Shown in pieces: positions 12,084 to 20,258 of a stretch of DNA of 64,000 nucleotides. Source of the stretch: Eledone cirrhosa (Eukaryota); NCBI GenBank assembly GCA_964016885.1, contig OZ024742.1, positions 213,156,001 to 213,220,000 of the forward strand, read 5' to 3'. Position numbers and translations under genes: made by a program. The notes under the pieces are model-generated. The model was not told the origin of the DNA and did no database searches. It saw only the letters and a list, made by a program, of their open reading frames with translations. Within the stretch, counting starts at the first letter, position 1. Each line of letters starts with the position of its first letter.

Positions 12084-12152
12084 TCTATCTATCTATCTAT
12101 CTATCTATCTATCTATCTATCTATCTATCTATCTATCTATCTATCTATCTAT
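12084..12152 (+). repeat. (TCTA)n tract upstream of the Tx1 train
   Basis: Directly visible. Not preceded by an element 3' end. Confidence 0.95.
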
Positions 12153-14210
12153 AACTTCAGGCCCATAACTCTGCTCAACACAGAGTTAAAGATTTTGGCC
12201 AAGGTGTTAGCGACAAGGTTGGCGCTTGTCGTCGAGAACCTGGTAGGGAAAGCGCAAACGTGTGCAATCCCGACCAGGTCCATGCACGACAACCTCCACC
12301 TCATGCGATACATCATAGAGAGGGTGGGTAGTGAACCCTGCTTCGGTGGGGCTCTGATCAACTTGGATCAGTCTAAGGCATTCGATAGGGTCGACCATCG
12401 ATACTTGGAAACGGTTCTCAAGGCGGCTGGTTTCGGTCCCGTGTTCAGAGGATGGATCGAGGCGATGCACACCAGCATCTGCTCGAGGGTCAAGGTGAAC
12501 GGCTACCTATCGGAGCCGTTCGCAATCACGCGTTCTATTCGACAGGGGTGCCCTCTCTCCTCCATTCTGTATGTATTGACTCTAGAGCCACTACTGCGGA
12601 AATTGGAGCTGTTGCAGGGCATCCCTCTAGAACCGGGACAGTGCAAAGCGGCGTCGGCTTATGCCGACGCCGTGGCGGTAATGGTGTCGAGCACCTCGGA
12701 AATCGGGGTGATCGGCAACTTACTGAAAGAATACGAAACGCTGACGGGAGCAAAACTAAACCCGGACAAGTCTGTCGGTTTGCAACTCGGTACGTGGAGA
12801 GGCAAACCGATGACGTCCGACAGCGTCGTTGGACGCTGGACGGACGGACCGGTGAAATTGCTCGGGGTCTGGTTCGGTCCAGACCTCCAGGTGGAGAAAA
12901 ACTGGGACGAGGTCACGGCCAAGGTGTTTGCACTCACCCAGAAGTGGGCAGAGTGCAAACTGTCCTTGAAAGGTCGAGTGGAGGTGGCGAACACTTTCAT
13001 AGCGTCCGTCATCTACTACCGCTTGACTGTCGTGCCTTGTCCCCGTAAACACCTCGCCAAGATGGAACGCATGCTCTTCCAGTTTCTGTGGAAGAAGCAG
13101 GTTCCGCTGGTGAGGAGATCCGTCTGCTGTCAGCACCTTTCCAACGGAGGGCTGGGAATGCCGTGGCTGATGATGTGCAAACATGCGCTGAGGCTGTGGC
13201 ATCTCCAGGTATTCTTCACCGACCCTCAACCGGTGTGGGTACCGTTTGTGAGACAGGCTTTCCCACAGCTCGTCTCGCTGACGGAGCTGCAGTCCTGGGC
13301 GAAGAAAAGACCGAAACGATGGGCGCCTGGCACATTGAATGCGCTCAGGCGCTCACAGTCCTCTGGCAAGCGGGCGCAGCAATAAGTGGAGACTCCGCTT
13401 CAACATTCTATAGAGGTATTGTACGTTACAAGGGCGAAGACGTACTCGGAGAGACTCTGGGCGTCGAAGACGATGAGCTCACCAGTCTGTTTGGTAGGTC
13501 TTTCCGCCCGGGACCTATGGACAACTTCCAGAGGTCCCTGGCCTGGCAGTGCTACCGAGGAGCTCTCCCGGTTCGTAACAAGATCTACAGGCACGGACGC
13601 CCCGGCAGGGATCCTTCCAAGAGGACGTGTCCAAGATGCGCGCAGTACATTGAAACAGTCCTGCACGCAATTGTACACTGCCCGGGCGTAACCGACCTGT
13701 GGAACCGACCTGTCCCATATGCTGTCCCATATGCTGTCGCATATGGGACAAATCCAGTTGACTGCCCAGTCCATAGTAAGGATCAAAACGAAAGAGAGGC
13801 GGTTTTCCTCTGTACGGTGGCTATGGTGAAAGAAGTTATATGGTGGACGATGTTGAGAGGACTGAGGACATATTCCTTTCTCTCCGGACAACAATTGATT
13901 CCCTTCTTTAAGTATCACTTTAGAAGGATAATCAGAGTGGAGAGAGAGGCACTGCACCCCAGTAAATTTACTGAAAGGTGGGTGAATGAAGCGAAAATGG
14001 CCCGAGTGATTGGGCCTTCTCTGTTTATAAGCCTGTAGGTTGAGGGAGAGAGCAAAAGGAAGAAAGGAGCACTTGCACAACACGCTCCTGGAGTTGAGGG
14101 TTGTTCTATCGACGGGGTATTAAACAACCCATTTGTGGCTGTATGTAAAATCCCCGGCATGTCTTTGTATTGTCCCATTTTCTTGTGCGCCCTTGTGGCT
14201 AATAAAGAAA
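12153..14210 (+). mobile_element. 5'-truncated L1/Tx1-clade LINE, copy 1 (defective)
   Basis: RT motifs NFRPITLLN, LDQSKAFDRVDH and RQGCPLS; YADA in place of YADD; frameshift near 13320; C-terminal CPRC...HAIVHC; ends AATAAAGAAA then (TCTA)n. Confidence 0.92.
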
Positions 14211-14260
14211 TCTATCTATCTATCTATCTATCTATCTATCTATCTATCTATCTATCTATC

Positions 14261-15580
14261 CAATTGTCACAGAAAGATATTGAACTGGTTTTCAAAGATT
14301 CAATGAATGATATTGCATTCATTCAAAGAAGCAAACTTTTTGGGAGTATTTCGGTACTGATGAAGGATCAATTGACGGCCCAAAATTACTCTGTGTCGCC
14401 AATTGTATCCAACCTGTACACCTTTTTCCCTACATACATGGGAAAAAGGACACAAAAGATCAGAATCACAAGTGTCACACCAAAGGTGAACATATGGTGG
14501 ATACTGTGCGGCTTCATCAATTTTGATGAAGACAGAATACTGTCAGTAGGCAAGTCCCCCAGAGATGTATTCAATGGGACTAGCATTGAAGTTCTGGTGC
14601 AAATGAGCCCAGAGCGAATAGCTATGATCCCACAGCGTGTACTCCTGGACGGACTTACCTACATAAACCTTTCGGTTGAGGGTAGGCGGCCTTCATGTTA
14701 CCATTGCTTTAGCAGGGGTCACCTGAGGGCTTCCTGTCCTAAACTAATGAACCAAAAAAAGGCTCTTCTGCCAACACCCATCAAAACAACACAACCACCA
14801 ACACCACCACTACAACAACAACACCAACACACAAAAATAACCACAACAAACACAGTCCCACCCAACCTCACTCCACCTAAAACCACTGCAAAATCACATA
14901 CAGACACAACAGCTCCCCAAGACATACCCCTCCCCAATCACACAGACGATACAACAGATGAGGCTATCTCGCCATCACCCAGTGAAGACGAGGGAGAACC
15001 CCATCGCTCGAAAAGAAAGAAAAGACATCACAAAAGCAAAAAACCAGCAAACACTACCACAAACATACAACCACCAACACAAACAACAAAAATATCACAA
15101 ACAAAACCCCCACCTCCTGAAAACAAAATACCTACAACAAAACGAAAGCACACACAAGAACTACAGACAAAAACAAACACAACACAAGAAAATTACACTT
15201 ACACTTACATAAACACTGAAAACAAAACACTAATGGAGACCATTACGAACGACCCTTCGGTTTTCACCGAAGGGAAAACTTTCGCCCACTCTATAAAAAA
15301 TAGCAAAAAAATGAACCTAAAACTGATTAGGGTCCCTATACAAACTTATAGGTCCCTAAAAGAAACATTTGAGAAGGATGTGGGGAATTCCTGCGTGAAA
15401 CCACTCAACCGCGTCCTTCTCAAATGCCTCCCCACCCCAGACACCCCCATTCCACCAGACCCCACCCCACCAAACATCTGCGTCCCCACCCCGCCGGAAA
15501 CCACCACCCATCCAGACAACCCCTCCAACACCCCCATGGAAATCGTGCGGCCTGGTCCCCAGGAGGCGAAGGGTGAGTGA
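14261..15580 (+). CDS. Tx1 ORF1p (gag-like, CCHC zinc knuckle, Pro/Thr/Lys-rich disordered C-terminus); native start missing
   Basis: VEGRRPSCYHCFSRGHLRASCP (C-x2-C-x4-H-x4-C). Open from the microsatellite junction to the stop at 15580, 33 nt before ORF2. Confidence 0.8.
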   Translation, partial: QLSQKDIELVFKDSMNDIAFIQRSKLFGSISVLMKDQLTAQNYSVSPIVSNLYTFFPTYMGKRTQKIRITSVTPKVNIWWILCGFINFDEDRILSVGKSPRDVFNGTSIEVLVQMSPERIAMIPQRVLLDGLTYINLSVEGRRPSCYHCFSRGHLRASCPKLMNQKKALLPTPIKTTQPPTPPLQQQHQHTKITTTNTVPPNLTPPKTTAKSHTDTTAPQDIPLPNHTDDTTDEAISPSPSEDEGEPHRSKRKKRHHKSKKPANTTTNIQPPTQTTKISQTKPPPPENKIPTTKRKHTQELQTKTNTTQENYTYTYINTENKTLMETITNDPSVFTEGKTFAHSIKNSKKMNLKLIRVPIQTYRSLKETFEKDVGNSCVKPLNRVLLKCLPTPDTPIPPDPTPPNICVPTPPETTTHPDNPSNTPMEIVRPGPQEAKGE

Positions 15581-19051: not shown

Positions 19052-19362
19052 GTTGAGGAAAAGGAGGAGGAGAGGAAGGGAGTACAAGCTCTTCGTACTC
19101 CTGGAGATGAGGGTTGCACATTTTTTTCGGGGGTCTGTGTTACCCATATAAACTGTCTCCCTCTATTGGGGAAAATCGACTAACTTTTAAATTCCATCTG
19201 TGATAACATTTTACACGTTTTTATTGTATGTAAACTTCCCCCTTTGTATTTGTCCCCTTCTTTTGTGCCCCTGTGGCTAATAAAGAAATATATCTATCTA
19301 TCTATCTATCTATCTATCTATCTATCTATCTATCTATCTGTCTATCTATCTATCTATCTATC

Positions 19363-20158
19363 GAATATGCTCAGGCGCTCACAGCCCTCTGGCAAGCGGA
19401 CCCGGCGATCAGTGGAGACTCCACTTCGTCATTCTATAGAGGGTTGGTCCGCAGCAAGTGCGACGACGCGCTCGGAGAAACTTTAGGCGTAGACGAAGAC
19501 GAACTGGCCAGTCTCTTCAGTAGGACCTTCCTCCCGGGACAGATGGACAACTTCCAAAAGTCCCTGGCCTGGTAGTGCTACCGAGGAGCTCTACCAGTTC
19601 GAGACAAGCTCTACAGACATGGGCGACGGGCAGGGACCCTTCGAAAAAGATCTGTCCGAGATGCGTGCGAGACGAAGAAACCGTCGCGCACGCATTCGTA
19701 CACTGCCCGGGCGTTACCGACCTGTGGTGCTATGTAGAACGACTATTGTCGCGGGTGGGACCAATCCAGTTGACCATCGAGTCCATTGTCATGATCAAAC
19801 CGCCACCCTCCTTCAAAAGCGAAGAGAGAGGTGCTGTACCCCAGCAAGTTTTATGAAAGGTGGGTGAAAGTGGCGAGAGTGGCCCGAGTAAATGGGCCTT
19901 CTCTCTATATCAGCCTGTAGGTTGAGGAAAAAGAGGGAAACATGAAAGAGGTACTTACTCTTCTTACTCCTGGAGATGAGGGTTGCACATTTTTCCGGGG
20001 GTATGTGTTACCCATATGTAATGTCTCCCCCTATTGGGTAAAATCCATTAATTTTTAAATTGCATTTGTGATAGTATTTTACACGTTTTTATTGTATGTA
20101 AACTTCCCCCTTTGTATTTGTCCCCTTCTTTTATGTTCCTGTGGTTAATAAAGAAACA
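19363..20158 (+). mobile_element. 5'-truncated Tx1 copy 3 with internal deletion
   Basis: Closely matches 18343-19290 apart from a deletion of about 150 bp at a GAGAG microhomology near 19823. Flanked by (TCTA)n at 19291-19362 and 20159-20255. Confidence 0.92.
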
Positions 20159-20258
20159 TATCTATCTATCTATCTATCTATCTATCTATCTATCTATCTA
20201 TCTATCTATCTATCTATCTATCTATCTATCTATCTATCTATCTATCTATCTATCTTTC

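Follow-up and report, generated by a model that had tools for sequence, protein, structure and literature searches.

A stretch of 64,000 nucleotides (nt) from Eledone cirrhosa (assembly GCA_964016885.1, contig OZ024742.1, forward-strand positions 213,156,001 to 213,220,000; hereafter the window) carries a head-to-tail train of long interspersed nuclear elements (LINEs) bracketed by tracts of the tetranucleotide repeat (TATC)n, equally read as (TCTA)n. The train is confirmed as an arrangement beyond chance. It probably arose by three separate insertions from a young LINE family of the APE type. This family, which likely belongs to the Tx1 clade, prefers (TATC)n, and the preference likely arises from nicking of the GATA strand together with annealing at both ends. 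The evidence supports targeting of (TATC)n that is real and strong, yet not absolute.

(TATC)n at both junctions

A preliminary description of the train reported three copies in the same orientation, with different 5′ truncations, drawn from at least two subfamilies and bracketed by (TCTA)n. The window contains exactly this, with three subfamilies (B, young A and older A-like) and four tracts (Table 1). As the preliminary description held, the repeat is not merely a tail, and the first tract precedes any element. The 3′ ends of all three copies read AATAAAGAAA followed by 2 nt (TC, TA and CA) and then TATC, without poly(A), again as described. Copy 1 is 82% identical to copy 2 and 95-96% identical to an intact B copy (L362), and its 3′ untranslated region (UTR) has a gap of 61 base pairs (bp). 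Copy 3 is 94.7% and 90.1% identical to full-length A.

Searches across the 3.0-Gb genome assembly returned 981 candidates with the A 3′ UTR, 894 with the A 5′ UTR, 278 with B and 1,637 with C, which are first-look candidates and not copy numbers. The loci used for the flanks are the best-scoring matches rather than a random sample. In 74 of 75 A copies, GAAA and 2 nt close the 3′ end and are followed by TATCT. When 12 nt of the 3′ flank are scored with at least 10 matches required, TATC is found in 69 of 74 A copies (one tandem duplicate dropped), 21 of 26 B copies and 29 of 30 C copies, and ATT in none of them; four B loci have no detectable 3′ end. Poly(A) was seen at the 3′ ends of none of the sampled sets, A to F.

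The 5′ junctions were scored over 16 nt, with at least 14 matches to TATC required for A and at least 13 for B and C. The preliminary description held its claim vulnerable to a lack of (TCTA)n at the 5′ junction of most copies; in the sample, the truncated A copies have TATC there in 24 of 30 cases, and in 15 of the 19 with no element end in the upstream 120 nt. Full-length copies have TATC beyond a short head in 39 of 44 cases; of the remaining five, four have a short tract directly behind another element and one, L088, is non-repeat. By comparison, only 0.04% of background positions match at 14 of 16 or better, and 0.11% at 13 of 16 or better, in a 400-kb sample of 40 evenly spaced 10-kb stretches. 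That sample contains 6 TATC tracts, 397 AT tracts, 82 AC tracts and 34 AG tracts. A target preference has been defined as more than 20% of flanks lying in one sequence type (PMC4494074), and both 74 of 75 at the 3′ end and 24 of 30 at the truncated 5′ end lie above this level. The earlier interpretation is supported, with exceptions: L005 and L110 are off-repeat insertions, the 5′ flanks of L021, L385, L386 and L088 are non-repeat, and (TC)n follows the copy at L075.

Target or tail

The A copies have no fixed tail, since the perfect TATC run at their 3′ end measures anywhere between 1 and 87 nt. Target-site duplications that include non-repeat bases occur at L005 (7 nt), L002 (13 nt), L067 (18 nt), L382 (21 nt) and L143 (about 17 nt), and duplications of about 16 nt occur at L309 and L318 in a sister lineage described below. 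Because these duplications include non-repeat bases, the 3′ flanks at all seven loci are target-derived. In a formal test, 8 of 27 copies carried a duplication against a null mean of 2.7; heads or trains account for L384, L065, L075 and L082, which leaves four to be counted.

An obligatory 3′ microsatellite tail of the L2/CR1/RTE type, added independently of the target, does not fit the present family, as the repeat is also found at truncated 5′ junctions and the 3′ run is only 1-7 nt in some copies.

Neither the contigs nor the reads of four runs contained a flank-to-flank joint across 11500-20800, a comparison that skips repeats and is hence uninformative. The upstream flank of the window train has no close paralogue. 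At L005, the flank repeat stops about 90 nt before the junction, and the L088 paralogues, among the matches listed (part of 11), run on into other sequence and not into the L088 downstream flank. Metagenome relatives (71 loci, mostly 23-33% identical) have no TATC tracts and are too distant to bear on target conservation.

A repeat head inherited with the element

Full-length copies share a repeat-like head of about 12 nt. Immediately before the unique start, 36 of 44 full-length copies carry a TCTC variant, 6 carry pure TATC and 2 differ in another way; the variant is absent from all 30 truncated junctions listed. A longer form of the head (7 of 39) is limited to one body haplotype at separate loci, and distance within this class is 0.00083 versus 0.0036 (0 of 5,000 permutations). 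The linkage to haplotype and the restriction to full-length copies indicate that the head travels with the element. An inherited head suggests in turn that the transcript likely starts at least about 12 nt inside the upstream repeat. The short 5′ microhomology noted in the preliminary description recurs in the sampled truncated junctions, which share a mean of 1.5 nt with the repeat versus 0.60 in a two-sided null. At least 2 nt are shared in 11 of 24 junctions, where 3.1 are expected.

A young family and its proteins

The full-length element is about 5,842 bp and encodes two open reading frames (ORFs), ORF1 of 638 residues and ORF2 of 1,145 residues. Of 40 loci fetched with the 5′ UTR search, 39 are full-length, and both ORFs are intact in 21 of the 40. 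Copy 2 is 99.3-99.9% identical to the 39 full-length copies, matching 38 in one piece and the 39th in two. The mean pairwise distance among these 39 is 0.36% (copies lie 0.02-0.9% apart). This low distance and the many intact ORFs indicate, at the level of sequence, that the TATC family is very young and likely active.

ORF2 contains Exo_endo_phos (E-value 2e-12), RVT_1 (6e-27) and zf-RVT (4e-6) Pfam domains. Its predicted structure (mean predicted local distance difference test score 60) has human L1 ORF2p as its best fold match (E-value 6e-39) and as all of its top seven matches. The catalytic residues of the APE domain are present (N10, E39, Y112, D141, N143, D202, D226 and H227, with numbering against L1). 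A CCHC motif is visible in ORF1, but the zf-CCHC Pfam match is weak (E-value 0.24). The atlas neighbours of ORF1 are a CCHC cluster (0.92) and a ZCCHC3-type RNA-binding cluster (0.89), which is a lead only.

A sister lineage on (ATT)n

The evenly spaced sample, like the window itself (58038-60106), also contains related elements with a DNA identity of about 70%. Their 3′ end has the same layout as that of the TATC family and is followed by (ATT)n. The 12-nt 3′ flank is ATT in 25 of 30 D, 12 of 26 E and 24 of 26 F loci, which are overlapping query sets, and TATC in none; four loci each of E and F have no detectable 3′ end. All 7 full-length 5′ ends listed are flanked by ATT. In a quick tree of the reverse transcriptase (RT), subfamilies A, B and C form one group (support 97), whose sister is the ATT lineage (92). 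Protein identity between the lineages is 63% in the endonuclease, 59% in the linker, 67% in the C-terminus and 76% in the RT. The endonuclease has 41 fixed differences between them, including S194I and T196S in a 9-residue beta-B6/beta-B5 hairpin.

The decayed copy of this lineage in the window has a (GAA)32 tract (57943-58040) in place of its 3′ end. An abundant repeat resembling a short interspersed nuclear element (SINE), at 4158-4495 on the minus strand, ends in GAAACA and (ATT)n like the ATT-lineage 3′ end. It has 50 matches in the 400-kb sample and lies downstream of 27 of the 90 D, E and F loci, sharing ATT-lineage trains. Its mobilisation may depend on the ATT Tx1 lineage, or else on a Dong/R4 element that targets TAA.

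Mechanism and alternatives

A plausible sequence of events begins with transcription that initiates within the upstream repeat; the transcript would be cut in the downstream repeat, shortly after AATAAA. Only about 6 nt separate AATAAA from the repeat, which would place the cut within the repeat, and the RNA would end in a few UAUC units, probably followed by poly(A). ORF2p would nick the bottom strand. The simplest site would be GAT/AGATA, which agrees with the off-repeat sites L005 and L143 as well as with the ATT lineage, although a periodic target does not allow the register of the cut to be fixed. The freed DNA end would pair with UAUC and prime reverse transcription, skipping any poly(A). 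Such pairing with the nicked GATA strand would explain both the invariant TATCT junction and the missing poly(A). The end of the complementary DNA would then join the upstream repeat, by means of the head in full-length copies or through 1-3 nt of microhomology in truncated copies.

Several observations weigh against this interpretation. The choice of best-scoring matches biases the census to young copies. Five of the 30 truncated A copies score below 13 of 16 at the 5′ flank, L011 among them only through a short tract. The older sets are weaker at the 5′ end, with 11 of 21 B and 14 of 23 C copies at 13 of 16 or better, and some of these boundaries are misplaced by internal deletions. Among 27 A copies that could be scored, 19 lack an upstream duplicate of the first 3′ variant base, which limits their duplication to less than 7-20 nt, if there is one at all; duplication length is variable overall and often short or absent. 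No clean empty site was recovered in the paralogue tests (train upstream flank, L005 and L088). The endonuclease, for its part, is not markedly more diverged between the two lineages than the linker or the C-terminus, a pattern that neither proves nor excludes a protein-based switch of target.

This lack of an endonuclease-specific excess of divergence also favours the strongest alternative, in which annealing dominates. A relaxed endonuclease would cut at, for example, any T/A step, the repeat at the RNA ends would pick the productive nicks, and the switch from ATT to TATC would be a change of flank and not of protein. A selection of this kind has been proposed for LINEs with 3′ repeat tails, and an effect of 3′ repeats on priming is discussed for RTE LINEs (PMC13295347). 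The inherited head, the excess of microhomology and the near-invariant TATCT at the 3′ junction, which persists even at the non-repeat sites L005 and L386, are all in line with it. However, sites with just a 5-7 nt match are rare, although motifs of this length must greatly outnumber long tracts; the preference is thus not explained by pairing over 5 nt alone. We regard dominance of annealing as possible but unlikely.

It is considerably less likely that the element makes the tracts, with slippage at both junctions extending short TATC seeds so that long repeats are products and not prior targets. In its favour, about 24 nt of additional repeat separate the duplication at L067 from the start of the element, and of the tracts with at least four units, 6 of 7 in the window and 2 of 5 in the sample of 400 kb adjoin elements. 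Nevertheless, no obligatory tail is seen in copies whose 3′ end has just 5-7 nt of TATC, copies that share a haplotype differ in their 3′ flank variants, and many flanks are old, degenerate tracts on both sides.

The preferred mechanism would also account for the trains. Each insertion would split one scarce tract in two, and later copies of any subfamily would land beside earlier ones. Scarce, strand-asymmetric targets that double with each insertion would thus explain trains on the same strand. Thirty-three of 74 A copies lie no more than 120 nt behind the 3′ end of another element, and 189 distinct tracts after an element end have same-strand homology within 300 nt at 101 and opposite-strand homology at 1. 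Unequal recombination between flanking repeats, or mere survival in repeats without targeting, is very improbable and largely refuted as a general cause: tandem copies at L006 and at L025/L026 do share truncation points, but the three window copies come from different subfamilies and have different breakpoints, nearly all copies that are just 0.02-0.9% apart already lie in TATC, the far commoner AT, AC and AG tracts are unused, and the strand is fixed. The earlier account of trains holds for the window, but the pairs at L006 and L025/L026 are later tandem duplications and not separate insertions.

Beyond the preferred mechanism, target choice may, more speculatively, be largely RNA-guided and heritable. 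With the repeat at both RNA ends, landing in a new microsatellite would found a lineage, the switch from ATT to TATC would have occurred in this way, and the element would then multiply its own GATA/Bkm targets. The mechanism of microsatellite targeting is described as not well understood (PMC3812793). One genome with two sister lineages on TATC and ATT and with many intact, near-identical TATC copies is a useful test system. Given the sister pair, the 63%-identical endonucleases and the intact copies, the roles of endonuclease and annealing can be tested directly by swaps of domains and RNA ends. TATC microsatellite markers in this animal may also carry kilobase insertions.

Clade placement and known systems

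The family has an APE and RT domain and the L1-like ORF2 architecture of the Tx1/L1 group. Tx1 ORF1 proteins are characterised by RRM-like domains and a CCHC knuckle. In the RT tree (47 sequences; P0093 was too short and was left out), the family lies in an open fork (support 87 by SH-like approximate likelihood ratio test) with the fish proteins BAC82621, BAD04856 and P0044, apart from the vertebrate-L1-like and plant sequences. The deep supports are only moderate (78-87), and the fish proteins have ZCCHC3-type ORF1 domains. BAC82621 and BAD04856 are probably Keno-type. Membership in the Tx1 clade appears likely from architecture and targeting, with a tree of only moderate support.

Known Tx1 targets include Tx1D, U2, (TC)n, (TTC)n, (TTCC)n/(TTTC)n and transposons, and the figure or supplements of that source may hold more (PMC4494074). 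Microsatellite targets of LINEs include ACAY, AC, TC, TTC and TAA (PMC3812793), to which (TG)n is added (PMC4640811). Kibi on (TC)n and Koshi on (TTC)n are teleost Tx1-clade families (Kojima and Fujiwara 2004, cited in PMC4494074 and PMC3812793). Like these, the present family is an APE-type element without long terminal repeats that is specific for a microsatellite. Unlike them, it does not lie in (TC)n or (TTC)n but in (TATC)n, an A-containing tetranucleotide, and its host is an invertebrate. The nearest named fish proteins are just 35-38% identical in the RT, and none is a verified Kibi or Koshi sequence. Crocodilian Tx1 families (Tx1-1_Crp and others) prefer (TTCC)n or (TTTC)n and share the tetranucleotide target, and tandem insertions at a shared target are reported there for SINEU-3 (PMC4494074). 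Their targets are pure pyrimidine, and they are placed near Kibi and Koshi in the tree of the same source (PMC4494074). What sets the family in Eledone apart from them is its very young age, its intact ORFs and its sister lineage on (ATT)n.

Tx1L of Xenopus laevis shares the APE-RT architecture, and its endonuclease is sequence-specific in vitro, with a hairpin loop of 11 residues versus 9 here (PMC1950540). It differs in its target, the transposon Tx1D, and the duplication here is variable in length. Target flanks are co-transcribed in R1Bm and SART1. In R2, target sequence co-transcribed on the RNA aids junction formation (PMC4494074). R2 and R1/SART/TRAS resemble the present family in carrying target on the RNA; they belong to other clades with other targets, and R2 has a restriction-like endonuclease. 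Waldo (ACAY), Mino (AC), Dong (TAA) and Togen (TG) are microsatellite-specific, and none is listed on GATA/TATC in the text of these sources (PMC3812793, PMC4640811). Dong resembles the sister lineage in its TAA/ATT target, whereas all four belong to other clades than Tx1. Those clades are R1, R4 and NeSL-related.

Thirteen recently active L1-Tx1 families are described in Octopus vulgaris, and the word target is absent from the available text (PMC13282606); octopus families may have been catalogued without their target. No GATA/TATC-specific Tx1 family was found in the literature searched, which excluded subscription papers, Repbase Reports, Repbase and Dfam. If Repbase and Dfam do not already note such a target, GATA/Bkm joins the list of LINE targets. 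The family works like Kibi, Koshi and the crocodilian (TTCC/TTTC)n families. The inherited head and the ATT/TATC sister pair are additions to the preliminary description.

Features of the window and related loci

Table 1. Elements and repeat tracts in the window (positions count from its first nucleotide)
Feature	Position	Strand	Description
(TCTA)17 tract	12084-12152	+	Upstream of copy 1
Copy 1, subfamily B	12153-14212	+	5′ truncation inside RT, start about 3713 of full-length element; frameshifted
(TATC)12 tract	14213-14260	+	Between copies 1 and 2
Copy 2, young subfamily A	14261-19290	+	5′ truncation inside ORF1, start 815 of 5,842
Copy 2 ORF1 remnant	14261-15580	+	C-terminal 438 of 638 residues; CCHC knuckle motif
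Copy 2 ORF2	15614-19051	+	Intact, 1,145 residues; APE about 1-240, RT (Pfam) 511-755, zf-RVT 976-1032
Copy 2 3′ UTR	19052-19290	+	Ends in AATAAA (19279-19284), GAAA, TA; no poly(A)
(TATC)18 tract	19291-19362	+	One TGTC variant; final 3 nt common to copy 3
Copy 3, older A-like subfamily	19360-20158	+	5′-truncated, start about 4895; internal deletion of about 140 bp
(TATC)24 terminal tract	20159-20255	+	Closes the train after copy 3
Second small train	39105-40070	+	Outside the train first described
Decayed ATT-lineage copy	58038-60106	-	74% identical to copy 2; no 3′ end of its own; abuts (GAA)n

The second train consists of a short TATC run, an A-like fragment (39117-39511), (TATC)13, a subfamily C fragment (39564-39933), a degenerate tract and a 3′-end stub.

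Elsewhere in the genome, recurrent distinct sequences follow TATC tracts in trains, in the groups L009/L090/L091/L121, L362/L363/L011/L098, L004/L094/L105 and L007/L102. Those at L362/L363 and L186 are the 5′ UTRs of other full-length subfamilies, and the rest are probably likewise. This suggests at least five TATC-targeting subfamilies. L021 and L114 (minus strand) have the same non-Tx1 repeat, with the start CCAACAGGGGG and a SINE-like part inside, directly after a B-family 3′ end and a short TATC run; it is either a repeat that carries the target site or a 3′ transduction. Two 3′ flanks, at L095 and L079, switch directly from (TATC)n to (GATA)n. The GATA run at L095 leads to a truncated copy on the same strand, and the breakpoint sequence of that copy contains TAGATAG, which suggests slippage at this junction. 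At L086 and L078, a TATC-flanked insertion lies between two versions of a non-repeat sequence of about 20-40 nt that differ by 1-2 mismatches, which probably reflects older local duplications around the tract. Two weak Pfam matches lie outside the trains in the window: GIY-YIG at 42637-43404 on the minus strand (E-value 8e-4), possibly Penelope-like, and RVT_1 at 24708-25487 on the plus strand (E-value 3e-4), another retroelement fragment.

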